DNA from: a virus
DNA: 28,043 nt
IMG/VR virus record: IMGVR_UViG_3300025771_000138
Reading direction: 5' to 3' (one strand)
This document shows positions 8,362-26,364 of the stretch, piece by piece. Below the pieces are notes generated by a model. That model saw nothing but the letters and a program-made list of their open reading frames with translations. It ran no database searches and was not told the origin of the DNA. The position numbers and the translations under genes were made by a program. Each line of letters starts with the position of its first letter. Positions within the stretch are counted from its first letter, which is position 1.

Positions 8362-9542
8362 GATAAGAAAGGATCAATTGTAATTAAATTTAAAAAATCT
8401 ACTTCATAAGAAGTATAATCTATAGGCTGTTGTTTAAACTTTACTGATATATCATTATTATCTTTGAATTTTAAAGTGTGAGTCCATGATGTACATAAAA
8501 ACGCTTTTGTTTTATTGTATGGAGCTGGAGGAGTAAATAAAAATTGATCATAACCTCTGTGCTTCTCTAAAAAATGTAGAATAGCTTTAGCTTCTTTGTC
8601 TGACCTGCTTGTGAATGTTATATCTAAATTCAATAAAGATTTATTTAATCCATCTTCTACTCTTACTAAATAATCATTTTGAAAATTTTGCTTGTAAAAT
8701 CTTGGCGCTTCATTAAAAGATATGCCTTTATTTATTGGCCAATAAAATTGTTTTTTAGTCCATAGTGTATTGTTACCTATTGGGCCATTGTCATTTGTCG
8801 CTGTAGTTTCTGCATCTCCTGTGTAATAATACCATCCAGAAGTTGCTATTGTGAAATTAGTTCCGCTGCCATACACAATATCATCTTTTGAGTATGTGTT
8901 TCCTGCGGCCCAAAATCCACTCGTATTACTAAATGGAATATAAAAATCTTTCCAGTCTGTTGTGGATCTATCTTCATTATGCAATGCTAAGCCAATATTA
9001 TTAACATCAGGATATTCTAAAGAGTTATCAAATGTTTCTACAAAAAATTCTAACTCTTGATTGTATGGCTCAAATGGAGTCCAGTATATACCTGTGTAAC
9101 CACCACTTGGCTTAGCCCCCTTATTAAATGAGTCTTCAAGTAAATGAATAACAGCTTTAGCTTCTTTATCTGATCTTTTACTGAGAGGTATATTAAATTT
9201 TGCTTTTATTGCATTTTCAGACTTATTTAAATGGTTGAAATACCCATCTCCATAGTTGATATCATAGTAATGATTTTTAAACTCAACAGAAGCTCCATAA
9301 GATACTTCGTTAAAAAACTTATTTGTCCACGGGCTATTATCACCGGTAGGAGTATTGTGTATTGTTGAAGATGCCGCTGCACCAGTATAATAATAGTGTC
9401 CTGATACATTTTGTGCAGCAGGATATTCTGTGCTACCAGTTGTGTAGCCACTATAATATACAATATCAAATTTAGAATAAGAATTTCCAAGCTCAAAAGC
9501 TGATACGTTAGCTATATTTGTTTCTCCAGAATTTAAAATCAT
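8358..9542 (-). CDS. Distal tail protein made of two tandem lambda gpM-like domains, each preceded by a CBM5/12-like module
   Basis: Second half (FYW...F.NDY..RVEDGLN...AILHFLEKHRGYDQFLFTPP...CTSW) parallels gpM. RSDKEAKA occurs twice (DNA near 8581-8606 and 9151-9176). Confidence 0.8.
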   Translation of the reverse strand: MILNSGETNIANVSAFELGNSYSKFDIVYYSGYTTGSTEYPAAQNVSGHYYYTGAAASSTIHNTPTGDNSPWTNKFFNEVSYGASVEFKNHYYDINYGDGYFNHLNKSENAIKAKFNIPLSKRSDKEAKAVIHLLEDSFNKGAKPSGGYTGIYWTPFEPYNQELEFFVETFDNSLEYPDVNNIGLALHNEDRSTTDWKDFYIPFSNTSGFWAAGNTYSKDDIVYGSGTNFTIATSGWYYYTGDAETTATNDNGPIGNNTLWTKKQFYWPINKGISFNEAPRFYKQNFQNDYLVRVEDGLNKSLLNLDITFTSRSDKEAKAILHFLEKHRGYDQFLFTPPAPYNKTKAFLCTSWTHTLKFKDNNDISVKFKQQPIDYTSYEVDFLNLITIDPFLS

Positions 9543-10354
9543 ACAGCAGCCTTACCTGTTAAATATTCTTGCGAAACAGAAAGAGAACCTTCCATAAACC
9601 CGTTAGCTGCTGCAGACAAATCATTTTGATAAATTTGACCTGTGCAACCAAATTCTGTCAATGGCGACTCTCCATACACATCATAAATTTTAATTACGAC
9701 TCCCGCATTAGTACCAGTAAAAGATATTGCATTTCCAAAATCTTCGCCTTTTACAGACATATTGATAATAACATTTTCTTTTGTCACCCTGTAAGGAACC
9801 TCATTGCCAATTGTTACTACAGGATTTCTATCTGCTTTTACAGAATAATCAAAAGACATCTGTTTGTTTATACCAATATCATCTCCAGCTAAAAACGATC
9901 TTAAACCATGACCAATTGGAACTTCTTCTTGAATAGAACTGTAAGATTCAAAGTCTGAATCTGATCTACCATTGTCATTTAAAGACCCTAAAGATCCGTA
10001 CAAATCTATTTCTGATTGAAATAAAATAGGTTGAAATGGAGCCACAGAAAAACTCAAAGATCTAACAAATCCGCTTTCAAAACTAAGACCTGCAAAAGAT
10101 CCATTAAAAGCTTCTCCGGTATGTTCTATAGCTGTCAAAGGATTTAAAAAATCATGAAAATCACCTGTACAATAATGAGAAAAACTTAATGTACCTTTTG
10201 TTGGCCCTTGTGGCGCATAACGAATAACAGAACCCGTCACATCTGTAACTGGCTCTAAAGAAGCGCTAAAAGATAAAGTAGCATTCTCAGCAAAAATACT
10301 GGTGTTTGCTATCTTAAGTAACGCTTTTTCGTATTTTATAAATTTTGTTGCCAT
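9539..10354 (-). CDS. Tail-tube-like protein with two tube-like domains (minor tube / baseplate ring)
   Basis: Beta-strand pattern parallels 11941-12873 and 23216-24595 (SFSASLEPV..., ESGFVRSLSFSV, SFDYSVKADRNPVVTIG). Confidence 0.5.
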   Translation of the reverse strand: MATKFIKYEKALLKIANTSIFAENATLSFSASLEPVTDVTGSVIRYAPQGPTKGTLSFSHYCTGDFHDFLNPLTAIEHTGEAFNGSFAGLSFESGFVRSLSFSVAPFQPILFQSEIDLYGSLGSLNDNGRSDSDFESYSSIQEEVPIGHGLRSFLAGDDIGINKQMSFDYSVKADRNPVVTIGNEVPYRVTKENVIINMSVKGEDFGNAISFTGTNAGVVIKIYDVYGESPLTEFGCTGQIYQNDLSAAANGFMEGSLSVSQEYLTGKAAV

Positions 10355-11937
10355 TAGGTTATATCGAATTCATAAACAAAAGTAAGACTGGCTCCATTAT
10401 ATCTACCACTTGGAGCGCACCATGCTATGGTGGCTGTTGATTCAGCAGTAAATTCAAGGTAAGATTCTGAAGAGCTATCAATACTAAAAGTTAAAATGCA
10501 ATTATCAGAAGCTGAAGCACTATCAAAAGATGCTGTTAAGTAACCAGCATTAACACCATTATTGCTAGACTCAAAAGACAAACAAGTCGCACCTTGCGCA
10601 GTAGCATCTACGTTGAAATTTCCATAAGCTGCTATTAATTTACCCGCATAAGGCATAACTGATTTCGCAATTTCATCAGAAGTTTCAGGGTAAGGATTGC
10701 CACTATTTGGATCAGTAATAGCAGAATAAGAATCGATTCTAGGATCTATATTTATAGCTGGCATATAAGCCGTAATACCCGTATTATTGAAACATTTTAA
10801 TGGATGAGTAAAAACTTGGACAAATCTCCCGGTATTATGCCCAGAATTAGTTTTGTTATGAGTGTTGATGCCATGAGCTAAATATGCACACCCCCCAGTA
10901 TCAACATAAAACAAATTGTTACAAACTGTAGTATTGTCAAACACAGCATTTGAAGCATTAAGTTGAGCCGTTTTATGATGAATTCCAAAGTATTGATTGC
11001 TCCCATTTTTAAATGTTCCCGTTATCCAATTAACTCTTTGCGTACTACTTTGACAATTAGAATAACTTAAAACATTAGAATAAGCATTGCTGTCTGTGTT
11101 CTTAAAATATATCCACGAACCATTAGAATTATTACTATAAAAATCTCCAATAAGTCCATTATTTGTTTCTGAAACATTTAAAGCAGCATCAAAATCTGTT
11201 GTTTTAACCCCTAACTGACCAGAAGCATTAAAATTAATATTAGACGCTCCTCCAGTATTAGCATTACCTAAACTAAATCCTCCAGCAGAAGTATTAGAAA
11301 TATATAAGCTGTTAGTAGCAGTCGTCCCTGAATCTCTTCTTAGTTCTATTACAGCTCCATTAGGATTATTTTGCACAATAGCATCTGATCCACTTACAGC
11401 GCCAACTATATGAAGAATAGCTCCGGGGCTAGTCTCACCTATACCTATTTTTGATGAACTTTCATAAATAACACTGTTCGTTAAAGTTGTAGAATCTGAC
11501 CATTTAGGAATGTAATTAGCTATTCCACCAGTTAATAATCCACCGCCTCCAATATCAGATGTTGTTATGTTGGTCCAAGCATAAGTATCTGTACCTGTTA
11601 CTTTTAAAAACTTACCTGTAGTACCAGCACTGCCGCCAGTATCATAAATACCTCCTGTTACATGAAATGTTCCATTTACTTGCAGCGCATAATTTGCTGT
11701 TGTGCCACCAATACCAATGTTTCCACCATCTTTGATAAATAAAGACACATTACTGCCATCATCGTAAAACGTAATGCCGTTTGCGTTGAGTGCGTAAAAT
11801 GTCTCTCGCTTAAATAAATTTTCAACAGTGATGTTTTTAATTTCAGGGTTAGTTATAGAAGAATTTTTATCTCCTATAAATAGCACATTACAACCTGCTG
11901 TTGTCGTTAATGTATTGTAGTCTAGTATTTTTGGCAT
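10354..11937 (-). CDS. Tail fibre-like protein (527 aa)
   Basis: Repeats GNIGIGGTT..YALQVNG, KIGIGETSPGAILHIVG, QLGVKTT...ALNVS; Gly/Thr/Asn-rich; YIPKWSDSTTL motif typical of fibres. Confidence 0.65.
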   Translation of the reverse strand: MPKILDYNTLTTTAGCNVLFIGDKNSSITNPEIKNITVENLFKRETFYALNANGITFYDDGSNVSLFIKDGGNIGIGGTTANYALQVNGTFHVTGGIYDTGGSAGTTGKFLKVTGTDTYAWTNITTSDIGGGGLLTGGIANYIPKWSDSTTLTNSVIYESSSKIGIGETSPGAILHIVGAVSGSDAIVQNNPNGAVIELRRDSGTTATNSLYISNTSAGGFSLGNANTGGASNINFNASGQLGVKTTDFDAALNVSETNNGLIGDFYSNNSNGSWIYFKNTDSNAYSNVLSYSNCQSSTQRVNWITGTFKNGSNQYFGIHHKTAQLNASNAVFDNTTVCNNLFYVDTGGCAYLAHGINTHNKTNSGHNTGRFVQVFTHPLKCFNNTGITAYMPAINIDPRIDSYSAITDPNSGNPYPETSDEIAKSVMPYAGKLIAAYGNFNVDATAQGATCLSFESSNNGVNAGYLTASFDSASASDNCILTFSIDSSSESYLEFTAESTATIAWCAPSGRYNGASLTFVYEFDIT

Positions 11938-11940
11938 TTT

Positions 11941-12873
11941 TTAAATAAAGTTTTTAAATTGTAAATCGATTGCTAATAACCCATCAACAGATGTAGTTAT
12001 ACTTTCTGACACTAAATTGCCAGACGCTGGTATGTTTCCATCATAAGCCGTGATTCCCCTGCCGTCATCTTGTATAATTGCATTATTATGATCTCTAATA
12101 AACTCAGAATCATGATCTAAAAGTCCATCTAATGTGCCTTCTTCTATCGGGCACCTTATATTTACACTCAAAGATTTATATACACCACTTCTAACATTAT
12201 CTATCATGTTAGCTGTATAATAATCATCTATTTCTATTGTAAAATTGGTTGATAACTCTACAGGTGTTTGAGTTATAACCTGTGTTGGCGCATAATAGTT
12301 TTGACTTGTTTTTTCTCTTAAATCATAAACAGGTGTTCTTGTTATATTATATTCTTGACTAAACTTAGTAATTCTATTACTATCGCTCTGATCAACCGAT
12401 AAAATTATATTATCTTGATTAAGAAAGCATAAATGCGGTAAAGTATGAACTCCTGAGTAGTCTAACTCTCCACCTCTAACGCCGCTACCTAATTGCCCAA
12501 ACACAACAAAAGTACATCGAACTTGAGGTATAGAGCCCACATCTGCAGAAATAGAATAATTTGTTAAATAACCAGATGTGAACCCTATTACCTGTCCTGA
12601 ATTTTCATCTAAATCCGTTGCATATATCAAAGATCCATCTACACCATAATCACCTGTCAAATCCAATAAAGGGTCATTATAAATATAATTTCTAGTAAAA
12701 GATATTTCTCCTTGCGGTGGTTCAGCTAAAATAGGCTGTATATGACCACCACCAAGAACGTTAATAGGGCGACGAGCTACACTGTAGCTCATACTAAGAT
12801 CTGTAACACCTGAGATCCCGGTACCGCCAACATAAAAAATATGCTCGTAACTTGGTGATGCGTTATATGCCAT
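11941..12873 (-). CDS. Tail tube paralog immediately after the TMP (baseplate tube protein-like)
   Basis: GYLTNYSISADVGSIP vs GFITDYSVEAAVGSLP in the 459-aa tube protein; two-domain layout. Confidence 0.7.
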   Translation of the reverse strand: MAYNASPSYEHIFYVGGTGISGVTDLSMSYSVARRPINVLGGGHIQPILAEPPQGEISFTRNYIYNDPLLDLTGDYGVDGSLIYATDLDENSGQVIGFTSGYLTNYSISADVGSIPQVRCTFVVFGQLGSGVRGGELDYSGVHTLPHLCFLNQDNIILSVDQSDSNRITKFSQEYNITRTPVYDLREKTSQNYYAPTQVITQTPVELSTNFTIEIDDYYTANMIDNVRSGVYKSLSVNIRCPIEEGTLDGLLDHDSEFIRDHNNAIIQDDGRGITAYDGNIPASGNLVSESITTSVDGLLAIDLQFKNFI

Positions 12874-12874: not shown

Positions 12875-15800
12875 TTACTTTGCTACTTTAGTTTTACTTA
12901 ATGAGCCGCCAGTTCTTTGCTCTTCATTGATAACCTGAAGAACAACAGATTTAATTCTTTCTGATAAATCTTTGGCTTTTGTTTTTTGATCGTTGGAACC
13001 ACTTTGTTGATTACCATCTGTACTGCTAGAGCCTTCTCCACTTGATCCCATATTAATATTAATACTAATATTATTAGTATTAGAAGAATCAGAAGAACCT
13101 AATTTTTGAGCAGATTCTGCGACGCTTCCTCCTTCTTGATAGCCCGGTATATACCCGCCGTTAATGCGGTTCATGAATCCAAGACCATATTTACGCACAG
13201 CTCTATTATTCATTACAAATTCTCCACCAGCCATAAATGCAGGAATAGAATCTATATTTCTAGGACCGCTAGAGATATATCCCCCAGCTTGCTTAACATA
13301 ACCTGTCTTATACGGACCCATACCAGACGCTGGCACAGGAGGGCCAGCATAACCTTCTGGTAGCTCAGCAGGTATGTCCCCAGAAGCTCCACCTCCAAAT
13401 TTACCTTGCATTGCTGCTCCTGCAGATCCTATAACAGCAGAAACAGCAGTTTGAATAATCATGTTCCTTAAAGCTGTTTTTTTAGCTTTCTTTTCTTGCC
13501 TTCTTTGCTCTGCAGCAATAGCAGCGTCTCTCATTTCTTTTAGCAATGGATCGTCGCTAGCATAATACATGCTGCTCATTTGACCGCTGCTTTTTAAATT
13601 TACATCTTGATTTAAAAATGCTCCTCCACCCTTAAATCTTGGAGCCATTCCGAAATTTAATCTATCAATTGCTGAAGGGCCACCTAACGCTCGCACAGCA
13701 TTTCTATTTAAAACGTATTCTCCATCTTCAAGTAAAGCTGGGTTTCTATCTCCGGTACGATTACCAGAAATATACATACCATTTTGAGCTTTTATAACGC
13801 CACCTCGTTGCTTTTTAAATGGCACAGCTCCTAAAGTCATAACTCCACCAACAATATTTTCTAAAGCTTGTCGGCGCATAATACGCATAAAATCCATAGC
13901 AACATCCGTTAAAGCACTTTTAAGATCTTTTGTTTTGTCTAAAGTAGCTTCCATGGCAGAAGCCATACCATCCCTAAATTTGATAGGAATTTCTTTAGTC
14001 ATGCTATACTGGAATGTTTCTAGATCATCTTTAACCTGCCCCATACCTTCTTTAAGACCAAGACCTATACCGCTAGGACCGCGCTTTTGAAGTTCTCTTA
14101 AGAATTTTTCGTTTGTTTGTCTATAGTCTTCATTAAATTTCTCTCTGCTAGCCGCAGCTTGTAATTCAATTTCTTTTCTTTCTGCTTCAGCATTGTCTAG
14201 GATTTCTTTTTGCCTTGCCACAAAATCATTATAAGCTGCTGAATAATTTGCATCCCCCGGACTAACTTGCCCTAAAGTTTCACGCCTTGCTTTGGCGATA
14301 GCTTGCTCTTGATCCGTGAAAGATCTTTCTAAATCTCTTTGTTCTTTTGCGTTTAAATCACCCACATCAGCTCTAAACCTAGCTCCAGCAATAGATTGAG
14401 ATTCTCTTATTCTTTGAGAGCCGGTAAGTCCAACGCTCATATCTAAGCCAAATTCTCTTCTAGATAAAGCAAGATTAACATCAGCTTGCTGTTTTGCTAT
14501 TTGCGCATCAGCAATTCTTCTTTGAGCCTGAATGCTAGATATTTCTCTTTGAGCTTCTAATTCTTCTTTTGTGTTTTGAGCTCTAATTTCCTCAATGCGT
14601 ATTTTTTCTTGGTTTATTGTTTTTTCATTATTTAGAGTTTTATTTCTTTGCTCATTTTCTTTAACTAATAATTCATAATTATCAAAAAAAGCTTTAATAC
14701 TTGGATTAGCAATTATTTCATCTTCGGTAAATAAAGCTCTCATTCTTGTGTCAAAGCCAGATATATCTCCCCCTGACTTTAAAGCAGCCTCAAAGTCTGT
14801 TAGGGCTGCTAATCCTTCTTGGCTTTTGTTTGCTTTGCCAAAAATATCTGCATATTTTGCTGCGTTATCAGCGTAAAATTGATCAGCAGAATTAACGACT
14901 TTATTTGCATAGTCTGCTTCTATCTGGGATTTCATATTGTTGAATTTTTCGATAGGAGCATTGATGCCATCTAGCATAGAATTTTGCAGATTTGTCATAG
15001 CATCAGTAAACTGTTTTTGTATATCTCTATCTTTAATAGATTGTTGGGCTTTTTTTACATCAATAAGTATTCTATCTTTGATAGCTGTAAAATTAATTAT
15101 CTCTTGCTCTTCAGGTGTTAGCGTAGTTTTCTCAGAAGTTGCTTTTCTTTTAGAAGCTTGATTTAGCAAGCTGTACATAAAACGACCTTTTTCTTGACGA
15201 TTCATTTCTGCAAAGCCGCCCTGCTTAAAAGCTTTTATTTGATCAAAGTCTACACCCAATAAGCTTTGACCTTGCATATCAAGACTTAGAGAAGTTGCGT
15301 ATCCTAATTTTTCTTGAGACATAGCTGCTTCTAATGCTCTTTTCTTGAAACCTGCTTGACCATAAACAGATGGATCTACAAATTCATCTAAAAATTGGTT
15401 GGCTAATTGATCCATAGTGATATCAGAAGCATTTTCTCCAGAAGCTAACAATCTAGCGCCAATTGATCCAGCAGCTCTATTTTTTTCATATTTTAGTAAA
15501 GATGCAGTCATTTCAGTAATGCTGCCGTTAGCCTCTTTAAAAGATCCATCTAAACCGCTACCACTTTCTTGCAGTTTTTTCATGGCATCAGCAGCTCTTT
15601 TGTTAGCATCTGTTAATTCGTCTTGTGTCAAAGCAGAAGCGATATCTTTTTGCGCTTGAATATATTGCTCTGCTGCAGAAGAATTTGCTTCTGTAGTTTT
15701 TTGATAATCATCAGCTTTTTGCTTGAGCTCTTCTAGAGATAAAGATGAATCATATGCGGCTTTGCCTACACCTATTAAACCTCCAATAACTGCTCCCGGC

Positions 15801-18800
15801 AAACCACCAATCATAGCACCTGATACCGCACCAGAAAGTCCCCCCGAAATCGCTGAACCTGCAAATCTTTGGCCTTGTGTTTGATCGGCCCTTGATTTCC
15901 CGCCGCTAATATATTGTTCCGCAACCCCACCTATTACAGGAGCTAAACTCATAAGCGCGAAACTCCCCCCAACACTTCCTATATTATTTTTTATTCCTCG
16001 CGCTATAGGAGATCTTTCAAGCATTGATTTTTGCTTTACAATCTTTTTTTGCAAAGTAGATGCGCTAACAGCAACAACATTCATTGAAGCAGTAGCCTTT
16101 GAAGCGCTATTTGATAAACTTTGGAATTTAGGCTCTAAATTTTTTATGGTTTGCGCAGTTAATCCTGAACTTTGAGCTGTAAGCATTAACTGGTTTTTAA
16201 TAGCATCTGCAGCATGCCCAGCTTGAGACATATTTTTTATTATGTTTTCAAATCGGGATTGAAGCTGTTTAGCGTTTTGCCCACCCAATCGGCCACCGCT
16301 TTTTGCAGCTGAAACACCAAAAATTTGACCGCTAGCAAAATTCGGCACATAGCCCCCAGCCATAGTAGCGCCTTTACGCATCATGCCAGCCATATTTTGT
16401 GGCTTGATACCTCTTCTTGCATTTGTTATCAAATGAGTATCATAAGCAATCTTTTCGCCGGGAGGGCCTTGGAACATTCCCCGAACCATAGGACGGCTTA
16501 AATTTTCTGAAATAACTCTTCCGGTTTTTAAGGCAGCGGGTGCTTTTAGCTCTCCACCTTTAACTTCCATGACACCTTTTAAAATACCACCTTCAGTTTT
16601 GATTAAATCTACTGCGCTATTGTCATTGCCATACAATTCTCCTCCATGAGCTAATCTGTAGCCCATGGCTTTTATTTTAGGATTTTTAGCAACCTCTGCT
16701 TCTACTTTGTCTCCATAAACTTTCGGGCTCATCCCCCTCTTCATTACGGAACGAATAGGTAAAGATATATGATTATCGTAACCTGTTTTAACTAAATCTT
16801 CTGGGTGAATATTTGGATTTTGAGCAGATGCACTGGAAATATTTGCAGCTGAAGCTAAGCTGCCTAGGGGCATACGGCCACCAGCTAAATAAGGTATATA
16901 ACCATTAGCGCCTTTTACTATGCCAGATGTGTCAGCTGGTTTATTCAAATTTGTTATAAGTAAAGTTTTTACTTTTACATTTTCTCCAGCTGGAGTCTTA
17001 AACATACTACCCACTCTAGGATCAAGTAAATTTTCACCTATGAATCTCGAAGGTTTATTTAAAGTTTGTGTTTTTTCTAAACCTCCACCTTTAACTTCCG
17101 CCATAGCGGTGATTCTGTTACCTACTATTTTAACAAGATCTATTGCGCTATTATCTTTTCTGTAAAAGTCATGTGCAGATTGCCAGTTTTTACCATTACC
17201 AACTAAAGAGAACCCAGATAAATTTGTTTTAAATTCATTTAAAACAAAATCTTCATAAGCTTCTCCGTATTTTTTCTTACTTTTATATTGCGTTTGATCG
17301 TTAAATGCAGGAAAGTCCTCAAATCCAAACTCTGCATCATAACCACTTTTAAGCATATCATTTGGATTGATATTTTTATTTCTTTTTGATGCTGATGCTA
17401 AATTCCCTTTAGCTACTTGCGATAATTTAGTATTATAACCATATGCAGCAATAGGTACAGCGCCAGCTGGCATACCATACCTAGAAATCATATCTTGATT
17501 AAATATGGCACTGCCTCCAGATCCACCATAATTAGGAACCATGACCTCACTGCTATTAGCCACAACCGGGCCAACTTTACCGCCACCAAAAGCAAAATTA
17601 GGAATAACAACAGGATAAGCTCCATTTCCAGCTCCACCAACGCCTCTACTTATCGCGCCTTGTTCTGCGCGAATGCTAGGCATATAACCGCCAGCTTTGT
17701 TTTTTATTTTTTTAGCAGTATCACCTTCTACTCCTGATGAAGTAAGATAAACTCCTCCTGAAGTAAGGTTTTTTGCAATTGAACTGCTAAGATTACTTTG
17801 CGCTATAAATTGATTTGTTATGCCTTTAGCTCTACTTAAAACTAATTCTAGTTGTTTAGCTTGATTACCTTCTGCTTGGAAAATTTGCTGAGCTAATTTT
17901 GCATCCTGACTTAAAAGTTTATTTATAAATTCTTCTGTTTGTGCTCGTTTTGCAGAAGCTGTAGTAATATTTAATAATACAGGTAAAGCTTGAGTTAAAA
18001 ATCCAAAAGATTGTTTGGCAACATTGAATAAAACTTTTAGTGCGCCAACTAATACTGGACCTTGTAATACATTCGCAAATCCTTTTAAAAATCCTTTTGC
18101 TATAGTTGAACCTTCTTTCGGATCTAGCAAATTATTGATTCCGCTTATTACAGAGCCAAAAGAAGAAACAATACTTTTAGCCAAACCTAAAAAGGCTTCG
18201 TCGCCTAAAGTTTTCTGAAGTTTGGCAAACTCTGTACCGGTATTTTGCAGCAATGCAGATAAAGTTTGATTTAACTTAAAGTTAGCTTGTTCTGCTTCAT
18301 TGGTAGCATTTTTTGAAACATCTAAAGCTTTAGCTGTAACAGAATATTCTTTATTTAAATCTTTTAAAATCGCAGAGAGAATATTAGCTTGGAACACACC
18401 GGCAACTTGTTCACGCAAATAAGCTTGAGTAGAATCAGCTAGCTTATCATATTGTGCAGCAAAATTACTTAACACTTGAGTGGCTGGTAATATGTTGCCT
18501 TGCACATCGCGCACAGTAACGTTGAATCTTTCTAATGATTCTAATGTAGATTCACGCTGCAAGCGTGTAAAAATTGTTTTTAATGCGTTACCAATAACAG
18601 CGCCACCTCTACCAGTAGTTTGCTGTACGGAGGTAATCAAAGCATTTAACTCGTCAAAGTCTACCTTAGCATCTTGAGCTGCAGATCCAACGCGGCTTAA
18701 ACCTTCAACAAGATCTCTAGCAGCAACAGCAAACTTTGTTTCAACAGCAACAAATTTATTAACAGCAGAAGTAGTATCTAAATCTGTAAATGCATTAACA

Positions 18801-19339
18801 GTAGCAGTTAACAAGCTTACAGCTTTTTCGGCATTGATACCCGTCAATCGCACAAGTGTTAAAGCATCAGATGTTCTTTTTAAAACTTCTTCTGTTTTTA
18901 AACCCTGACGAGAGAACTCTAGAGCAGCTGCAGATGCTGCTTGAAAACTAGAGGCAGTTTTTTGGGCAGTATCAAACAATTGGTTGCCAAATTTTTCAAA
19001 CTGATTAGCAGTTAATCCTAATATACGGTTAATATCCGCAAATGCTGCTTCTACTTCAATAGAAGTTTTAACTATGTCTTTTAATACTTTAGTAACAGAT
19101 GCTAATACAGCAGTAGACGCACCGAACGCAATCACACGGGCGTTGGCCGCTTCCATCGCAGACTCGAACATATTGACTTGACCCGTGATACGCCCAAGAG
19201 GTCGAGTAAACGATTTTTCATCAATTCCAACTTTTAATTTCGCCTTACTGGCTGCTCTGGCATTAAACTGATTAATGCCCTTCTCAAAGCCTTGAATCAA
19301 ATGCTGGATATTAGGATCTACATTAATTTGTATAGACAT
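12875..19339 (-). CDS. Tape measure protein with inserted enzyme-like domains (2154 aa)
   Basis: TP901-type core (AAFADINRIL...ALEFSRQG...LTATVNAF...KFAV..RDL.EGL.R.GS.A), coiled coils, Gly-rich hydrophobic segment, two lambda gpH-like GE(Y/F)V.N..AV blocks, C-terminal EQRTGGSL. Confidence 0.93.
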   Translation of the reverse strand: MSIQINVDPNIQHLIQGFEKGINQFNARAASKAKLKVGIDEKSFTRPLGRITGQVNMFESAMEAANARVIAFGASTAVLASVTKVLKDIVKTSIEVEAAFADINRILGLTANQFEKFGNQLFDTAQKTASSFQAASAAALEFSRQGLKTEEVLKRTSDALTLVRLTGINAEKAVSLLTATVNAFTDLDTTSAVNKFVAVETKFAVAARDLVEGLSRVGSAAQDAKVDFDELNALITSVQQTTGRGGAVIGNALKTIFTRLQRESTLESLERFNVTVRDVQGNILPATQVLSNFAAQYDKLADSTQAYLREQVAGVFQANILSAILKDLNKEYSVTAKALDVSKNATNEAEQANFKLNQTLSALLQNTGTEFAKLQKTLGDEAFLGLAKSIVSSFGSVISGINNLLDPKEGSTIAKGFLKGFANVLQGPVLVGALKVLFNVAKQSFGFLTQALPVLLNITTASAKRAQTEEFINKLLSQDAKLAQQIFQAEGNQAKQLELVLSRAKGITNQFIAQSNLSSSIAKNLTSGGVYLTSSGVEGDTAKKIKNKAGGYMPSIRAEQGAISRGVGGAGNGAYPVVIPNFAFGGGKVGPVVANSSEVMVPNYGGSGGSAIFNQDMISRYGMPAGAVPIAAYGYNTKLSQVAKGNLASASKRNKNINPNDMLKSGYDAEFGFEDFPAFNDQTQYKSKKKYGEAYEDFVLNEFKTNLSGFSLVGNGKNWQSAHDFYRKDNSAIDLVKIVGNRITAMAEVKGGGLEKTQTLNKPSRFIGENLLDPRVGSMFKTPAGENVKVKTLLITNLNKPADTSGIVKGANGYIPYLAGGRMPLGSLASAANISSASAQNPNIHPEDLVKTGYDNHISLPIRSVMKRGMSPKVYGDKVEAEVAKNPKIKAMGYRLAHGGELYGNDNSAVDLIKTEGGILKGVMEVKGGELKAPAALKTGRVISENLSRPMVRGMFQGPPGEKIAYDTHLITNARRGIKPQNMAGMMRKGATMAGGYVPNFASGQIFGVSAAKSGGRLGGQNAKQLQSRFENIIKNMSQAGHAADAIKNQLMLTAQSSGLTAQTIKNLEPKFQSLSNSASKATASMNVVAVSASTLQKKIVKQKSMLERSPIARGIKNNIGSVGGSFALMSLAPVIGGVAEQYISGGKSRADQTQGQRFAGSAISGGLSGAVSGAMIGGLPGAVIGGLIGVGKAAYDSSLSLEELKQKADDYQKTTEANSSAAEQYIQAQKDIASALTQDELTDANKRAADAMKKLQESGSGLDGSFKEANGSITEMTASLLKYEKNRAAGSIGARLLASGENASDITMDQLANQFLDEFVDPSVYGQAGFKKRALEAAMSQEKLGYATSLSLDMQGQSLLGVDFDQIKAFKQGGFAEMNRQEKGRFMYSLLNQASKRKATSEKTTLTPEEQEIINFTAIKDRILIDVKKAQQSIKDRDIQKQFTDAMTNLQNSMLDGINAPIEKFNNMKSQIEADYANKVVNSADQFYADNAAKYADIFGKANKSQEGLAALTDFEAALKSGGDISGFDTRMRALFTEDEIIANPSIKAFFDNYELLVKENEQRNKTLNNEKTINQEKIRIEEIRAQNTKEELEAQREISSIQAQRRIADAQIAKQQADVNLALSRREFGLDMSVGLTGSQRIRESQSIAGARFRADVGDLNAKEQRDLERSFTDQEQAIAKARRETLGQVSPGDANYSAAYNDFVARQKEILDNAEAERKEIELQAAASREKFNEDYRQTNEKFLRELQKRGPSGIGLGLKEGMGQVKDDLETFQYSMTKEIPIKFRDGMASAMEATLDKTKDLKSALTDVAMDFMRIMRRQALENIVGGVMTLGAVPFKKQRGGVIKAQNGMYISGNRTGDRNPALLEDGEYVLNRNAVRALGGPSAIDRLNFGMAPRFKGGGAFLNQDVNLKSSGQMSSMYYASDDPLLKEMRDAAIAAEQRRQEKKAKKTALRNMIIQTAVSAVIGSAGAAMQGKFGGGASGDIPAELPEGYAGPPVPASGMGPYKTGYVKQAGGYISSGPRNIDSIPAFMAGGEFVMNNRAVRKYGLGFMNRINGGYIPGYQEGGSVAESAQKLGSSDSSNTNNISININMGSSGEGSSSTDGNQQSGSNDQKTKAKDLSERIKSVVLQVINEEQRTGGSLSKTKVAK
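16328..17449 (-). repeat. Tandem 177-aa-period repeat inside the TMP, each unit PD-(D/E)xK-like
   Basis: Units align (NINPNDMLKSGYD/NIHPEDLVKTGYD; DNSAIDLVK/DNSAVDLIK; EVKGG twice; ENL; LITN). A 17-nt exact DNA match lies at 16552-16568 and 17083-17099. Confidence 0.85.
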
Positions 19340-19379: not shown

Positions 19380-20387
19380 TCATGCATTCATAGCTTTCAT
19401 TAAATCTTTCATGTCCATTTTGCCACCTTTTTCTTTTAACATGCTAGATAATGATCTACCTTCTGTTTGTTTGTAGCCCAAATGATCGTAATCTTCCTGT
19501 TTTGCTCCGACTATTGTGGATGCTCCATCTTTATCTAGATTCTTCAGAACGTTCTTGGCTTTTTCTTGAGAATTAACGTAATCAATAATTTTATCAGGAT
19601 CTCTTTTGATACCTTCTGGTATTTTAGGGTAGTTCTCAAAAATATTCTTGAACATCCTAGAATAAACTATCAGCTTTACTTGATTGATAGATAATTTGAA
19701 TAATGGCTTATCGTAAAAGTTGCGCACATCCTCGCAAAAGGGCATATACATTTGAAAAAAGTCTTGTAACGTGACTTTCTGAATATTTGTGTCTTCAAAA
19801 CATATGAACTTACTATTGTATGTTGATATGACGTAAGTTAATTCTTCTGCATCCAGCTCATCAACGTCGGAAAGATCAAAAAATGATTCCGTTAAATCAG
19901 CGTCCTTATAAAAAGAGCAAATAATATAATGTTCTGAAACTCGTTTTTCCGCGAACTTTTCTGCAGTTTGCCCCATTAATTCGCGTTTTTTGTAATATAA
20001 GATGTTGTATTCTTGGTTAGCTTTTTTTAAATCTTCGTCAACGGAATTAATTTCTGATAATCTATAAAGATTTTTTCTTGTGTTTTGCAAGCTATCCACA
20101 TACTGACGCTGCTTTACTATTTTGGACTCATCATCAGAAGTCCAAATTTCATTATCTGTAATATAAGCAAGGGCCTCCTCTTCTGTAGGGAGACCCATAG
20201 TCTTAGCTTTGTTGATGAACTCATCACGTATTTTTTCTACGTGAATTTGATCAAAAACAGATAAATGTTTTATGTAAACAAGTTGATTTTCAAATAAGAA
20301 GCTAGAATAGCCAAAAGCTATATCTCTAAAAACTTCCCTATAATTAACATCATTCTTCTGCGGCTGGCTCTGCTTTTGGTTGCTCAT
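19380..20387 (-). CDS. Putative tail assembly chaperone, downstream gene (335 aa)
   Basis: Directly upstream of the TMP; charged and helical; distant parallel to 20350-21186. Confidence 0.55.
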   Translation of the reverse strand: MSNQKQSQPQKNDVNYREVFRDIAFGYSSFLFENQLVYIKHLSVFDQIHVEKIRDEFINKAKTMGLPTEEEALAYITDNEIWTSDDESKIVKQRQYVDSLQNTRKNLYRLSEINSVDEDLKKANQEYNILYYKKRELMGQTAEKFAEKRVSEHYIICSFYKDADLTESFFDLSDVDELDAEELTYVISTYNSKFICFEDTNIQKVTLQDFFQMYMPFCEDVRNFYDKPLFKLSINQVKLIVYSRMFKNIFENYPKIPEGIKRDPDKIIDYVNSQEKAKNVLKNLDKDGASTIVGAKQEDYDHLGYKQTEGRSLSSMLKEKGGKMDMKDLMKAMNA

Positions 20388-21186
20388 CGTTAACGATTTC
20401 TTCTGCTACCTCATCATTATCCTGTAAAAATGCGTCAACATCTTCTTTGCTAAACTCTGTGCCACTAAAGTACCAGTAACTTATAATCGCAGATACTTTA
20501 CCGATAACCTTGAGAAAGAATTCGTCATCTGCTTCATCTTTTTCGTAATAATCATCCATTTTATCCTTAAAGGTTTCTCCTTTAAAGAATAATTTATAGT
20601 CAGGAATGTTGAGAGCCAAACTTTTATAATATGTCAAATTTAATACATACCACATCATAACACGATTTTGAGCTTTAACATCGGCGGTATGATTAAATAA
20701 AACACGGTAGTCAGATTCTGTTTCTATGATTTTGCGCTTGATTTCTGCTATTCTAACATCATAGTCTGATAGCTTTTTGCGGAGTTTTTCATCTTGTTTA
20801 TCCAATCCTTTAACGGATAAATGAGAAATTTCACGCTCAATTTCAGCAGCTTCTTTGTATAAATTAAGTAGATCTCTTGCTTCTTCTTCAGCTAAAGCGC
20901 CGCCAGTATCAGCGTACTTCTTGGCCAACATGGCTTTGGTTAGAATACCTTTCTTAACACATTCGCTCATACAAATAGAAAATTCTGTTTCGGCGTCTTC
21001 TAATTGTCGGCGTGAAGGCTTCTTAATCAAGACTTCAACTGGTACTTCTTTTTTAACCTTTTTCTTGATTTCTACTTCCTCTTCAACCCCCTGATCGTTT
21101 GTGCGTTTTTCTTTGGTTGATTCTTCGACTTCTTTTTCAAAGTCTACAGTAAATGTATAAAGCTCTTTTAACATAAAATGACTCAT
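20350..21186 (-). CDS. Putative tail assembly chaperone, upstream gene (278 aa)
   Basis: IKKPSRRQLEDAE...GILTKAML...TADVKAQNR pattern; acidic coiled coil; position before the TMP. Confidence 0.55.
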   Translation of the reverse strand: MSHFMLKELYTFTVDFEKEVEESTKEKRTNDQGVEEEVEIKKKVKKEVPVEVLIKKPSRRQLEDAETEFSICMSECVKKGILTKAMLAKKYADTGGALAEEEARDLLNLYKEAAEIEREISHLSVKGLDKQDEKLRKKLSDYDVRIAEIKRKIIETESDYRVLFNHTADVKAQNRVMMWYVLNLTYYKSLALNIPDYKLFFKGETFKDKMDDYYEKDEADDEFFLKVIGKVSAIISYWYFSGTEFSKEDVDAFLQDNDEVAEEIVNDEQPKAEPAAEE

Positions 21187-21192
21187 ATATAG

Positions 21193-21239
21193 TAATTAAA
21201 ACACTCTATTTTTCTAAAAAAAGATAATAAAGTGTATAA
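21193..21239. promoter_or_regulatory. Back-to-back divergent promoter region
   Basis: Plus strand AAAGTGTATAA at 21229-21239; minus strand variant AGAGTGTTTTAAT (ACACT at 21201-21205), in a 61-nt gap between divergent genes. Confidence 0.6.
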
Positions 21240-21247
21240 TAACATGT

Positions 21248-21697
21248 ATGGCAAGCTTAATAACTGCAGCTGAGAAAAGCGCTTTGAATAGTGTCATGAA
21301 TAGTGTTCATGATACTTTTTCAAGATTGATTACTGTATACAAAGATGCGGTACAAACCGTGACGACTCAAAGTACGTCATTTAACTCTATTTATGGCAAC
21401 GCTGGAGCTACTACTAGTATCACTTACACACCTCAAAGCTCTCAAATTTACGCTGCTATTTTATACGCTAGAAGATTTGATGAAGACTATTTTGCCGATC
21501 AACAAGATTCGCAGCTTAAAATCAAAATGCAAGAAGGCAGAATAAGAGTTAAAATAAAAGCATCTGATTATAGCACAGTAAAAGACGGCAAAAGATTTGA
21601 GTTTGATGGGCAACAGTTTTTCAGAGACAGTGATTTTAGAGCGCATGGATTATTTGATGTGCAGTTTTATACGTTTTATGTGAAATCTTCTCAGTAA
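21248..21697 (+). CDS. Putative head closure / head-tail joining protein (149 aa)
   Basis: Size, beta-rich pattern ending RFEFDGQQF...YTFYV, and first position in the neck-tube block. Confidence 0.55.
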   Translation: MASLITAAEKSALNSVMNSVHDTFSRLITVYKDAVQTVTTQSTSFNSIYGNAGATTSITYTPQSSQIYAAILYARRFDEDYFADQQDSQLKIKMQEGRIRVKIKASDYSTVKDGKRFEFDGQQFFRDSDFRAHGLFDVQFYTFYVKSSQ

Positions 21698-21700
21698 AAT

Positions 21701-22297
21701 ATGGTCAAAAAAATAACAAAAAAAGATATAGAATCAACTTTATCTGCGTTACATTTGACCATTCAGTGGAAGAAAGAAGTAAAACGAGTAGCAGAAGCAG
21801 AAATGAGAGAAATATCTCAAGCTTTTTTAAAAGCTTTTATGGAGCATCCTGTTACAAAAGAAATTTTAGAAGGTCCTGATGCAGCAAATACTAGTGGCAC
21901 GTTAGGCGGGTATTCTAATTTATATGGTTTTATAGGGTTTTACGAAGGAGATAATCCGATATTACCTTTAGAAAATTTATTAAAAAAATATGCTGTAAAA
22001 GTATACAGCAGAAAAGGCAGCACAACTGTAAATATAGAAGTGCCAACATTAGAAGAAGCTTTTGCTATTACTCCTATGCCTTGGGCGACAGGAAGATCTT
22101 GGGCGAGAGGAATAGAAGTTGGCATATCAGGTTTAGGACAATATTTGGCAATAGATGCTGCAAGTTCAAGATCTGGTGAGGGCATACAAGCTAAAAATAA
22201 TCTAAGAGGAGGAAGCTTCACAAGAACGTCTTATTTATCTGGATTATTTAAAAAATACAATGACAGTATTAAAAAATTAAAAAATCAATTTAGATGA
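21701..22297 (+). CDS. Putative neck / tail completion protein (198 aa)
   Basis: Basic protein between the head-closure-like and terminator-like genes; assignment mainly by synteny. Confidence 0.45.
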   Translation: MVKKITKKDIESTLSALHLTIQWKKEVKRVAEAEMREISQAFLKAFMEHPVTKEILEGPDAANTSGTLGGYSNLYGFIGFYEGDNPILPLENLLKKYAVKVYSRKGSTTVNIEVPTLEEAFAITPMPWATGRSWARGIEVGISGLGQYLAIDAASSRSGEGIQAKNNLRGGSFTRTSYLSGLFKKYNDSIKKLKNQFR

Positions 22298-23154
22298 AAC
22301 CAGTATTTCAACATGAATTATTAAGTAGTTTTTACTTATGGTTTGATTCTTACCTTATGAGGAAAGGTGAGGCTTACGAAACTTTTACTACCAATTTTTA
22401 TCATTATAGCGATGAACGTATTACTGATAAAGTTGTATTTGGTAGTCCTTACAAACAATTTGTTTACGACGAATCTGTGAATGGAGCGGTGGTAATAGAA
22501 GCTTTGAGCGGAAACGGAACAGAAATAACAAAAGGCACTAGCGGAATGATGATTGACTATGAAAATGGTCGAGTACTTTTTGATAGTGATTTTGCTACAG
22601 GAACGAATATTAGCGGCAGATACAGTGTCAAAAATTTTAACACCTACATTTCTAACCAAAATGAAGAGCAGTTAATTTTAGAAGGCAAATATGAAACCAA
22701 CAGCAGATACACCCGTTCTCTTACTTACGTTGCGCCGTATGCTCAAGTTACTCCTGCTGCATTTTTAACAGTAGAAAACGTAAACAATCAACCATTTGCT
22801 TTGGGCGGTCAAGACAACACAATAACAAATGCTAAAGCTGTTGTGTTTGCTGAAAATATTTATGAGCTTGACGGCATATTATCTGTATTTGCTGATTCAA
22901 CTAAAACTTGCTTTGCTAACATTCCTTTTACAGGTGCTCCGCTTGACGAGTATGGAGATGTAAAATCTGATCATTATCCTAACGGGTATAATTATACTGG
23001 TTTAGCGAATAATTATCAGGATGACATATACATGATACACAACACAACGGTATCGAAATTTTCAGATAGGGCGCGTAGGGTCTTGGAGCCCTCGTTATAT
23101 GTGGGATTCATAGATTTTGAAATTCACAAGTATCGCTACCCAAGATCATCTTAA
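22294..23154 (+). CDS. Putative tail terminator protein (286 aa)
   Basis: Directly precedes the tube gene; P..FLTVE....PFALGG.D pattern; assignment mainly by synteny. Confidence 0.5.
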   Translation: MKPVFQHELLSSFYLWFDSYLMRKGEAYETFTTNFYHYSDERITDKVVFGSPYKQFVYDESVNGAVVIEALSGNGTEITKGTSGMMIDYENGRVLFDSDFATGTNISGRYSVKNFNTYISNQNEEQLILEGKYETNSRYTRSLTYVAPYAQVTPAAFLTVENVNNQPFALGGQDNTITNAKAVVFAENIYELDGILSVFADSTKTCFANIPFTGAPLDEYGDVKSDHYPNGYNYTGLANNYQDDIYMIHNTTVSKFSDRARRVLEPSLYVGFIDFEIHKYRYPRSS

Positions 23155-23215
23155 AAAAACTTCTCAAAATGAGATAAAAAATGTAAATTACTTTAAAATT
23201 TAACAATTAAATATT

Positions 23216-24595
23216 ATGGCAAGAAATAGAATAATTTATCAAAGTCAGGCTTTATTCATAGGCCCGAACTCAACAGGTTACCATTTGCAAAAGGCACCTG
23301 CTGGTACAAGCGACGCTAATACTGCAACTTGGTCTGGCGTAACAGGATTAACTCATGCTGGAGCTGAAGCAGATGCAATTACAAGATCATTGGTGCTTCC
23401 TTTGGAAAGAATACAATCAGCTAACTTTAATTTTTCAATTAACAGAATCGATGTTAATGAATTCGGTAAGTTGGCTCGTCTTGATTCTATTGTAACTGAA
23501 GCTCCAACTGTCGGATTAGATTTTAATTATTACCTTACAGATGGTGGCAACGAAAGAAAATTAGGTTTCAATATCCCAACTACTGGTGCAGCTAGAGCAA
23601 GCGCTAGTTCTTTCTATGACGCAGATGATTTAGCTATGTCTGGTTATAGCGCCTTGTCAGGTCAAATTGATGACACCCAAGGTAACAACTACTACATTCT
23701 TCTCACTAAAGAAGGTGAAGATGTAGATGGAGATACAAAATCTTCTAGCGCAGATGATTTTGATGTTGTAGCTATTGGTAATGGATTTATTACTGATTAC
23801 TCTGTTGAAGCGGCTGTTGGTTCATTGCCTACTGCTTCTGTAACAGTTGAAGCTTTTAATATCAAGGTTGATAATACAATGTCTGGAGCTACCAACTACT
23901 TACCAGCTGTTGGTCTTGAAAGTGGTATTCAATATACAGGTCAAGCTGCTCCTACTTACAATTACACTATTCAGGGCAATGAAGCTCAAGGCACTACCAC
24001 TCTTGATACTGAAGGATCTTCAGCAATCAAGGCTTTAAGGCCCGGAGATTTAGTTCTTACAATTAGCAATGCTTCTACTTACCAAGGTCTTGCTACTTTG
24101 GATGGCGATGGAAAAGCTCATATACAAAGCTTCACTATCAGCACTCCTATGAGTAGAACAGTGCTACAAAGACTTGGAAATACCTTTGGATATGCTAGAG
24201 TTATTGACTTACCATTAAACATGGAAGTTTCAATTTCTGCTGTTATGTCTGAACTCAAGAAGAGTAACATTTTCCATACTCTTTGTAATACCACAACTCA
24301 TAATTTCACTCTTGATCTTTATGGTTGTGATAGTGCTACTGGAACCAGAAGCTCAAGCAAATCTCTAAGATTTGAAGTCAAAGGAGCTCGCTTAGAAAGT
24401 GAAACTTTCTCTAGTGCAATTGGTGACAATCAAACTGTTGATATTACATTTAGTTGTCAAATTGGTGGCGCTAATGATCAAAATAACGGCTTATTCATGG
24501 AAGGTACTTATCCTCTTTACAGATGCTTAAAGTACTTACCTCTTGGCGCAAACAAAGGAGTTGCAAGTTCTTACAACCCACACGAAATCGCCTAA
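23216..24595 (+). CDS. Major tail tube protein with tandem tube domains (459 aa)
   Basis: MARNRIIYQSQALF start; two similar halves (RIQSANFNFSINR..V.EFG / HIQSFTISTPMSR..L.RLG); followed by a strong terminator. Confidence 0.75.
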   Translation: MARNRIIYQSQALFIGPNSTGYHLQKAPAGTSDANTATWSGVTGLTHAGAEADAITRSLVLPLERIQSANFNFSINRIDVNEFGKLARLDSIVTEAPTVGLDFNYYLTDGGNERKLGFNIPTTGAARASASSFYDADDLAMSGYSALSGQIDDTQGNNYYILLTKEGEDVDGDTKSSSADDFDVVAIGNGFITDYSVEAAVGSLPTASVTVEAFNIKVDNTMSGATNYLPAVGLESGIQYTGQAAPTYNYTIQGNEAQGTTTLDTEGSSAIKALRPGDLVLTISNASTYQGLATLDGDGKAHIQSFTISTPMSRTVLQRLGNTFGYARVIDLPLNMEVSISAVMSELKKSNIFHTLCNTTTHNFTLDLYGCDSATGTRSSSKSLRFEVKGARLESETFSSAIGDNQTVDITFSCQIGGANDQNNGLFMEGTYPLYRCLKYLPLGANKGVASSYNPHEIA

Positions 24596-24609
24596 TAATT
24601 AATAAAAGT

Positions 24610-24638
24610 AAAGCCCCCCAGAAATGGGGGGCTTTTTT
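24610..24638 (+). terminator. Rho-independent terminator, probably bidirectional
   Basis: AAAGCCCCCCA-GAAA-TGGGGGGCTTT perfect 11-bp stem with a T-tract after it and A-rich sequence before it; lies between convergent genes. Confidence 0.9.
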
Positions 24639-24649
24639 ATTACATTAAA

Positions 24650-24722
24650 CTGGTTGCCCGAATCAGGTATCCCCTTGTAGATAGACCCGATCCGTGCAGG
24701 TCTCTAATATAGAGTCAACCAG
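24650..24722 (-). ncRNA. Candidate 73-nt structured RNA (closing stem plus up to four hairpins)
   Basis: CTGGTTG/CAACCAG terminal stem. Inner CTCTA/TAGAG, AGACCT/GGGTCT, TATCT/GGATA and CCTG/CGGG stems; three need G-U pairs that work only on the minus strand. Confidence 0.45.
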
Positions 24723-24728
24723 AAAATT

Positions 24729-25121
24729 TTAAAAACCTTCTATGATTTTCTTAGCTTTTTCATGATCAGGATGATCAGGATGCATAATATCTAGTTCCTG
24801 TTGAAGCACAACAGATCGTGCGCCTTTTGTCACCCTAATAAACTCTTTTTTTAAAGCTTCTTTAAGTCTAGATTTTTCATGGCTAGGGAATATACCAACC
24901 TTTTGGCATAATCGCTGTAAATCAGCCAAATTGCTGTCTCTAAGCTTCTCTTCAAAAATATGTGGGTCATTAGTGCCAAATGGATTAACTTGCTTTATAC
25001 CTAAAGCTTCTTCAAGCTCTTTGGTCTTGCGAATATCTTCATCTTCTAATTTTCCGCTTGAAAAATTACTAAGATCTTCTACAGAAGTGATCTTCTTAGT
25101 TTGTTTTTTACGTTTTGTCAT
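24729..25121 (-). CDS. Small charged protein (130 aa) with a possible HeH/SAP/Rho-N-like helix pair
   Basis: Start moved to ATG 25121 (MTKRKKQ) because the track's extension crosses a terminator. Motif LRDSNLADLQRLCQKVGI....EKSRLKEAL. Confidence 0.7.
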   Translation of the reverse strand: MTKRKKQTKKITSVEDLSNFSSGKLEDEDIRKTKELEEALGIKQVNPFGTNDPHIFEEKLRDSNLADLQRLCQKVGIFPSHEKSRLKEALKKEFIRVTKGARSVVLQQELDIMHPDHPDHEKAKKIIEGF

Positions 25122-25159
25122 ATCTATATATATTACAGTTGAATATTGGTTATTCAAAT

Positions 25160-25189
25160 AAAAAAGCGCCGCCCCCGAAGGGACGGCGC
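25160..25189 (-). terminator. Rho-independent terminator after the major capsid gene
   Basis: Minus strand GCGCCGTCCC-TTCG-GGGGCGGCGC then TTTTTT; 10-bp stem with a C(UUCG)G tetraloop. Confidence 0.92.
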
Positions 25190-25212
25190 AAAACAAGCCT
25201 CTGAAAAACAGA

Positions 25213-26364
25213 TTACATAATCAAGCCAACTAAAGCTCTGTTGTCGAGGACCATACGGCCTTCTTCAAGAGATCCATAGTAACCGATTCTCTGCTGACGA
25301 GAGGAGAACTGATCGTCTGCGACTAAGTTGAACTCAGAACCAGTGTCAGAATCAACAGCAATGGCGCGAACTAAGGCGTCACGGCTACGATCAAGACCAA
25401 TGATGATTTCTTCTGAAGCACCATTAAAGGCACCAGCAGAACCACCAGTGTGACCAGCGTAAGAAGTTGAACCAGCAACAGTGTCAAACACAGTGTTGAA
25501 ACGCTTGCCAACACCCATCTCAAGAACTTCCATAATGGAAACACCGTAGAACTCAGTTAATCCGCTCTGAGAGAAGATTTGAGCTCTAACGTTGTCAGTT
25601 AAAGCGATAGGGTTAGAAGAAGCCCCAACAGCAGAGCCATTAGGAGCAACAGTGTTAACAGGGTTGTAAGCTAATGCACGAATCTGCTCAACAACTTCAG
25701 GAGAAACCAAGAGATCAGTGATTCCACGGCGAGCGCCAGTAGGAGTACCTCCAACAAAGGAAGCATTGATTCTCTTAGCTTTGGTGAACAATTTGTTTAA
25801 ATCCTCTAAGAGGAATCTGTTCGCCTGTGCTGTACGGAAAACGTGACGATTGCTTTCGGCAGTTGTGCTTGTTCCAGTAGAAGCAGCAGCGGCAGCAGTA
25901 AAAAGAAGATTTGCGGATGTTCTTTCTTGCTTTAATAAGACTTCCTGTGCAACACGGGTGAAAGTCTTGCCAACAACATCTAAACGGGAACGAGAAGCAT
26001 ACTTGCGATCAAAAGAAACAGCTGAATCCAAGTGATAGGTGGTGAACTTCAACTCAGCAGCAGTAGGCTGCACATAGTTGGTAGGAAGACCACCAGCCAC
26101 GGACTGGCTGTAAACTTTGATATAATCCTCGTCAAAAATGTCATGATAAAGGTCCAAAGGAATGGAAGGATTGTCATCAGCGTTGAACTGAAGAGAAGTA
26201 AACAAGTTACTAATCGTAGGAGCATTGTTGATAACCTCTGCCAAAACAGGACCGATGAATTCGGCTAAGGCAACCTGTGCGGCGTAAGCAACATCTCTGT
26301 TGCGTGAAGCCATAGCCTTAATCAATTCAACTTGTTCGTCGGTTCTTTTAAGAGTAATATTCAT
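25213..26364 (-). CDS. Major capsid protein, HK97 fold expected (383 aa)
   Basis: Size, position after protease/scaffold and decoration genes, own terminator, AAAGGA upstream of the ATG, and capsid-like segments (LDVVG..FTRVAQEVL..E; YGS.EEG..VLDNRA). Confidence 0.85.
   Translation of the reverse strand: MNITLKRTDEQVELIKAMASRNRDVAYAAQVALAEFIGPVLAEVINNAPTISNLFTSLQFNADDNPSIPLDLYHDIFDEDYIKVYSQSVAGGLPTNYVQPTAAELKFTTYHLDSAVSFDRKYASRSRLDVVGKTFTRVAQEVLLKQERTSANLLFTAAAAASTGTSTTAESNRHVFRTAQANRFLLEDLNKLFTKAKRINASFVGGTPTGARRGITDLLVSPEVVEQIRALAYNPVNTVAPNGSAVGASSNPIALTDNVRAQIFSQSGLTEFYGVSIMEVLEMGVGKRFNTVFDTVAGSTSYAGHTGGSAGAFNGASEEIIIGLDRSRDALVRAIAVDSDTGSEFNLVADDQFSSRQQRIGYYGSLEEGRMVLDNRALVGLIM

Follow-up and report, generated by a model that had tools for sequence, protein, structure and literature searches.

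Two predicted PD-(D/E)xK-fold modules as candidate nuclease cargo in the tape measure protein of an uncultured marine siphovirus

Tape measure proteins (TMPs) are usually seen as rulers or channel formers whose enzymes attack the cell wall, the well-studied exception being the polymerase fusion of phage P23-45, and the locus described here raises the question of what two tandem nuclease-like units are doing in the middle of such a protein. The stretch analysed, hereafter the window, comprises the 28,043 nucleotides presented above and is a 28-kb part of a 42-kb IMG/VR virus contig, with a CheckV completeness estimate of 29%. The gene under study (12875..19339, minus strand) is one uninterrupted open reading frame (ORF) whose translation has 2154 aa, the modules discussed below being all in frame. 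Its product carries PF10145 (PhageMin_Tail) at residues 124-307 (Pfam, E 1.4e-22; score 81 bits, cutoff 33.2) and matches ten tape-measure families of PHROG, and lambda-like tip genes M/L/K/I/J lie downstream of it; the ORF therefore encodes the TMP of a siphovirus, and the source phage is an uncultured marine one. Among cultured phages none was found to match this TMP beyond its N-terminal domain. As to the two units, we lean towards the reading, drawn by analogy with known systems, that the virions deliver a pre-made nuclease pair which would cut nucleic acid in the infected cell.

A first-pass annotation, made by a model from the letters of the window, had noticed two tandem PD-(D/E)xK-like units at TMP residues of about 631-1004, which correspond to window positions 16328-17449 on the minus strand. 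These coordinates proved exact and the two units are clearly paralogous, sharing 36% identity over 176 columns (BLASTP, E 1e-27) with a length of about 175 aa each. Unit 1 spans TMP residues 644-818 (16886..17410, minus strand) and ends in the linker GYIPYL (813-818), whereas unit 2 spans residues 819-1001 (16337..16885, minus strand) and ends in the linker GYVPNF (996-1001). The residues D734/E748/K750 and D911/E925/K927 that had been singled out in that annotation are indeed present, and the accompanying helix glutamates are E696 in unit 1 and E880 in unit 2. Comparison of the two units at the DNA level indicates that they are old duplicates, with likeness left only in the motif blocks. The assignment of unit 1 as a PD-(D/E)xK-fold module relies on its paralogy to unit 2, on invariant columns and on its selection pattern; for unit 2 a structural model and its structural neighbours are added to the latter two.

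We have analysed the conservation of the units among relatives gathered from a representative set of 1.8 billion proteins (10 matches, one of them false), a 5.8-billion-protein set, IMG/VR and JGI metagenomes. The resulting alignment holds 17 units from the window and its relatives; their identity to unit 2 ranges from 26 to 98%, and about eight of them are distinct below 80%. In unit 2 numbering, K55, S90, D93, E107, K109, G111, K120, R123, E127 and N128 are invariant in 17/17 units, which includes the aspartate, glutamate and lysine of the predicted signature, and the helix glutamate E62 is kept in 16/17. The catalytic-type set E, D, E-x-K is in fact retained across units that are only about 30% identical, and it is this column conservation, and not the bare motif, that stands above chance. 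Both units are under purifying selection, with ratios of non-synonymous to synonymous substitution rates (dN/dS) of 0.25 for unit 1 against its nearest ortholog, L004, and 0.07 for unit 2 against its own, L012. Throughout the representative set, the 5.8-billion set and the related TMPs the module family was met only inside TMPs, and no standalone homolog was found in the 5.8-billion-protein set, where the proteins of 88-338 aa are gene fragments only. Two candidate relatives were rejected: P0009, which is a 5404-aa FN3-repeat protein, and a match in a Phycisphaerales metagenome-assembled genome, where the pattern occurs by chance and the reading frame is broken by stops.

In order to describe the fold we have used an AlphaFold2 (AF2) model of unit 2 built from the 17-row alignment (pLDDT 83.8, pTM 0.80); a prediction for all 374 aa of the region from the single sequence reached a pLDDT of 31.5 and was discarded. 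The elements of the model follow the order α1 (54-67), a short β1 (77-78), β2 (94-98), β3 (101-109), α2 (115-127) and β4 (149-155), with E62 placed on α1, D93 just before β2, and E107 and K109 on β3, while K120, R123, E127 and N128, which are K938, R941, E945 and N946 of the TMP, are located on α2. Within this predicted structure the α-β-β-β-α-β order is that of the PD-(D/E)xK core and the signature residues fall on the canonical elements, so that the restriction-endonuclease-like α/β core anticipated by the first-pass annotation is recovered in the model. A Foldseek search with it returned no significant match (best E 0.38), the weak list being rich in VRR-NUC, AvaII, OkrAI, Hjc and Cas4. An exhaustive VIA-align comparison with 48,161 chains yielded a top 50 made almost entirely of PD-(D/E)xK nucleases, with listed values of 4.7 for BsaWI, 4.4 for NucS, 4.4 for AF1548, 4.3 for FAN1, 4.1 for CdiA-CT, 4.0 for Cfr10I and 4.0 for Hjc, and the CdiA-CT structure 4g6u is among these matches. 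The closest members of the superfamily appear to be the C-terminal nuclease domain of NucS/EndoMS, archaeal Hjc, the VRR-NUC domain of FAN1 and enzymes of the BsaWI/NgoMIV type. By analogy with this superfamily, the glutamate of helix α1, the aspartate of β2 and the Glu-x-Lys of β3 would bind a catalytic metal, and the basic/acidic helix (K..R...EN) would contact nucleic acid.

Such an arrangement would also suit a protein that binds without cutting, as non-catalytic PD-(D/E)xK domains exist and the invariant lysine, arginine, glutamate and asparagine of helix α2 are well suited to binding. The modules would then grip or guide the incoming DNA end or shield it from exonucleases, or they would serve as a folding or oligomerisation unit of the ejected TMP, and their proximity to a putative membrane segment, where the DNA would pass, agrees with this. 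We regard this explanation as rather unlikely, since binders usually lose part of the catalytic set, whereas here D and E-x-K are invariant at about 30% identity and the helix glutamate is kept in all units but one. Also, the cassette modules are situated 30-47% along the TMP and not at its N-terminal end, which in siphoviruses is the end expected to be nearest the packaged DNA.

The searches for known families gave a consistent picture. None of the curated nuclease profiles (PDDEXK_*, VRR_NUC, Hjc, NucS, Mrr_cat) matched the units above threshold, tblastn against 50,697 cultured phage records found nothing, and a feature search of the ESM Atlas gave a best value of 0.78, with Tox-REase-7 at 0.75 as a lead only. 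As sequences the units form a new family, predicted to belong to the PD-(D/E)xK superfamily and confined to TMPs. Literature searches gave no paper on a nuclease, of the PD-(D/E)xK or any other type, within a phage TMP, the closest published cases being P23-45 gp96 and Tme, which are compared below. What is new is the PD-(D/E)xK-fold sequence family together with the TMP cassette architecture, for which no published description was found, while enzymatic cargo of TMPs is of a known kind.

This architecture is established by linkers of the G(Y/F)(I/V)PNF type, which punctuate the central TMP at residues 551, 813 and 996 and are found with the same punctuation in its relatives. When this TMP and related ones were scanned with a regular expression, the first of the linkers was GYMPSI (residues 551-556; 17672..17689, minus strand), at the start of the cassette region. 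It is followed by a conserved glycine-rich pre-module (residues 557-643; 17411..17671, minus strand), which constitutes module cluster 1, occurs in 43 related TMPs and is 80-96% identical among close relatives; its two internal PNF/PNY motifs read VVIPNFAFGGG and VMVPNYGGSGG.

Using the N-terminal 640 residues as query, 2073 TMPs were recovered at E below 1e-20, 120 of which are among the matches listed, and a census of cassettes was carried out by cutting 123 related TMPs at their linkers. This resulted in 315 modules forming 46 strict clusters. At least one module of at least 120 aa is present in 106/123 TMPs, with 1-6 such modules per protein, and the family of the window, recognised with a hidden Markov model of the core devoid of linker, occurs in 24/123, as one copy in 13 and as two in 11. 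In profile comparisons with HHalign, runs including the linkers gave unrelated modules 50-67% on about 10 linker columns; as these columns inflated the probabilities, the runs were repeated with the linkers trimmed, and only these have been used. Three other module families then align to that of the window at 96%, 89% and 63%, with E/D/E/K/G in register, whereas unrelated modules score below 1%. Two further types are not counted as relatives: type D, which fell to 4% once the linkers were trimmed, and type B (slot 1 of P0007), for which no convincing relation was observed.

Invariant F-E, L/F-D and D-x-K columns occur in this order in cluster 0, which is the commonest module (46 TMPs; residues 643-914 of P0041), and in cluster 5 (16 TMPs; residues 644-955 of P0050). 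HHalign gave no link of either cluster to the family of the window, and their column conservation hints that they may be further domains of the restriction-endonuclease type. A P-loop module (GAGKT) is found in six related TMPs, and cassettes of about 160 aa with the Walker A motif AP.GAGKTTYA were observed at residues 1159-1318 of P0104 and in the C-terminal part of residues 642-1197 of P0109; from this motif the cargo is perhaps a kinase or an NTPase. Altogether, modules of the type A superfamily, to which that of the window belongs, of cluster 0, of cluster 5 or of SNase are represented at least once in 100 of the 106 TMPs with large modules. Most relatives close the array with two short mini-modules, of 63 aa (41 TMPs; residues 879-941 of P0079) and 71 aa (37 TMPs; residues 1048-1118 of P0112), which are absent from the TMP of the window.

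The content of a given slot is highly variable among TMPs that share about 75% backbone identity, and this extends to unrelated folds. In eight related TMPs the first slot is occupied by a staphylococcal-nuclease (SNase) domain (PF00565; score 34.5 bits, cutoff 21), which in P0128, P0129 and P0131 lies within the cassette at residues 633-833 (662-755 of P0128 for the domain itself), and these cassettes keep the consensus DGDT..RL..DA.E. The same position of homologous TMPs is hence filled by different domains, one of which is an unrelated bona fide nuclease fold, and of all the contextual evidence this speaks most strongly for nuclease cargo of an enzymatic kind; an SNase that keeps its catalytic motif in the same slot points away from modules which simply bind DNA.

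Comparison of individual TMPs also demonstrates that the cassettes swap independently of the TMP backbone and of one another. In P0017 the N-terminus is 77% and unit 2 is 95% identical to the TMP of the window, with slot 1 occupied by another module (FES..YIDL..REAK), and in P0018 to P0020 the identity is 80-84% for unit 1 and drops to 38-39% in slot 2, which contains a different subtype. The pair in the window is one arrangement of a linker-delimited cassette system common to at least 100 related TMPs. Independent movement of this kind, as in P0017, together with the conserved linker motifs that flank every module, could be accounted for by selfish in-frame cassettes, whose nuclease would attack the TMP alleles without cassettes in co-infecting relatives; they would spread through recombination between the conserved linkers and be tolerated by the TMP. 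Yet the junctions are not of the intein type: neither an N-terminal Cys/Ser/Thr nor a C-terminal His-Asn followed by Cys/Ser/Thr, as in inteins or homing elements, was found at the modules, whose first residue is A or K and whose last ones are ..PNF, the residue thereafter being A. Moreover, the nuclease has no separate start codon and exists only within a virion protein of 2154 aa, purifying selection is strong, and arrays reach six large modules, including the P-loop one, which is not a nuclease. Of the explanations considered, selfish spread appears to us the least credible.

Because the module occurs alone as often as in a pair (13 of the 24 TMPs with it have one copy) and the slots are exchanged separately, the view that the tandem pair forms a single-chain dimer is left without support. 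A complex prediction for unit 1 with unit 2 scored 0.00, which is uninformative either way on a pseudo-dimer. Of the proposal made in the first-pass annotation, namely a virion-delivered nuclease or nucleic-acid-binding effector with the restriction-endonuclease signature, the dimer is the part left unsupported; the predicted core, the invariant D/E/K residues and a variable slot that includes SNase all speak for the remainder.

As for the manner in which such enzymes would reach their substrate, the central TMP can be pictured as a cargo array comprising the pre-module, the two PD-(D/E)xK-fold domains of about 175 aa, glycine-zipper segments and a coiled coil. Kyte-Doolittle and GxxxG scans locate two hydrophobic glycine-zipper segments at TMP residues 1119-1141 and 1159-1195 (15755..15985, minus strand), which start about 120 residues past unit 2 and are followed by a long coiled coil; they are the putative membrane-inserting part. 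Glycine zippers are common to TMPs and to the type VI secretion DNase Tde1, and are needed to cross the inner membrane of the target (PMC10240207); it is from this literature on TMP and Tde1 zippers that we infer their role here. The TMP would be metastable in the tail tube, exit ahead of the DNA and be ejected into the envelope as a DNA channel, so that delivery of a ready-made nuclease pair appears the most likely mechanism. Each virion would bring several copies of the pair to the envelope or the cytoplasm upon infection, and nucleic acid would be cut before phage genes are expressed, with the DNA of the host or of a competitor as the most probable substrate. We infer catalysis, ejection into the cell, the target and a possible detachment of the modules from the TMP by cleavage at their linkers.

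The proximity of the modules to a putative channel-forming segment is also compatible with active nucleases that serve the entry of the phage's own genome, by processing, nicking or trimming it for translocation or circularisation in the manner of EndA or Tme. The endonuclease of the TMP-related Tme is EndA-like, and membranes are where DNA-entry nucleases act (PMC11126660). A housekeeping function of this sort should however be conserved, whereas the slot varies highly, even to unrelated folds, between backbones about 75% identical, and we consider this explanation improbable. The variability of the slot suggests instead a target engaged in an arms race, be it host, defence or rival DNA.

Several observations weigh against the delivery of an active nuclease pair. 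The units have no sequence-family match in Pfam, PHROGs, NCBIfam or PADLOC and no nuclease match in sequence or profile searches of the PDB. The AF2 model was built on a shallow alignment of 17 rows, about eight of them distinct, and the four signature residues have been placed along its secondary-structure elements only. PD-(D/E)xK folds in which the acidic residues are kept can be non-catalytic binders. The phage is uncultured, and the sole hint to its host is a weak label on one Crocinitomicaceae metagenome-assembled genome. Finally, folded domains of about 19 kDa, with three TMP copies side by side, would exceed the lumen of a tube of about 4 nm.

The nearest precedent is gp96 of Thermus phage P23-45, a TMP fused to a virion RNA polymerase that transcribes pre-early genes, the enzyme working in the cytoplasm; its authors hypothesise that the polymerase sits at the pore of the ejected TMP and transcribes as the genome enters (PMC10770324). 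The two cases have in common a nucleic-acid enzyme, here a predicted nuclease, placed in frame within a giant TMP. They differ in that the P23-45 polymerase is N-terminal and has been shown to be active, whereas the window has two small predicted nuclease domains, in the middle of the TMP and as part of an exchangeable array. Similarly, Tme, a TMP-related effector of the contractile injection system of Streptomyces davawensis, contains an active EndA-like endonuclease that causes its phenotype (PMC11126660). It resembles the protein described here as a TMP-like polypeptide with transmembrane and coiled-coil parts that bears an endonuclease (in our case predicted), but its nuclease is C-terminal and EndA-like, with DRGH/H-N-N motifs and a different fold, and the system is a bacterial one and not a phage.

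TMPs with enzymatic motifs for attack on the cell wall include Pb2 of T5 and that of mycobacteriophage TM4, with its Rpf-like motif. These also show that an enzymatic domain is tolerated inside a TMP, and theirs are used at infection; unlike these peptidoglycan-directed motifs, the modules of the window have a predicted fold that acts on nucleic acid. A further likeness, in layout, is to polymorphic toxins with nuclease tips such as CdiA-CT, which also combine a conserved delivery scaffold, a short junction motif and variable, exchangeable nuclease modules. In contrast to these, the TMP modules are internal and can be serial (1-6 large ones), delivery would be by a phage tail, no homology is shown, and no immunity gene is nearby; the absence of an adjacent immunity-like small gene had already been noted in the first-pass annotation, and the ORF list has no small ORF beside the TMP gene.

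Extending the argument to the whole group, the TMPs of marine siphoviruses (more than 2000 members) may carry a hypervariable array of 1-6 large exchangeable effector cassettes, most of them with signatures of the restriction-endonuclease type and others of the SNase or P-loop type, similar to polymorphic toxins and delivered by the tail, which would be recombined and perhaps proteolytically released at the linkers and would destroy nucleic acids of host or rival, or their defences, within seconds of adsorption; we put this forward as a tentative and still doubtful generalisation. If true, many marine phages would arrive with enzymes acting on DNA or RNA before gene expression. This would bear on how phages shut down hosts and their defences at time zero, on the passage of globular domains through a 4-nm tail tube, and on the evolution of phage structural genes by cassette exchange. 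The new PD-(D/E)xK family is small, with a core of about 120 residues, and is amenable to direct expression and assay.

Regarding the remainder of the window, two ORFs of 278 and 335 aa (19380-21186, minus strand) lie directly upstream of the TMP gene and share 38 nt; this is where tail assembly chaperones made by programmed frameshifting would be located. Neither ORF matches Pfam or PHROG. Large ORFs of the virion region (1005, 271, 527, 310, 459 and 383 aa, among others) are likewise devoid of PHROG or Pfam matches in the intervals 5344-8361, 9539-12873 and 19380-28042, and judging from these, current families cover this lineage poorly. The C-terminus of the TMP (window 12875-13700, about residues 1880-2070) contains two copies of the motif D..PA(L/F)..(D/G)GE(Y/F)V(L/M)N..AV, each followed by a glycine-rich stretch, and this motif is kept in the relatives.

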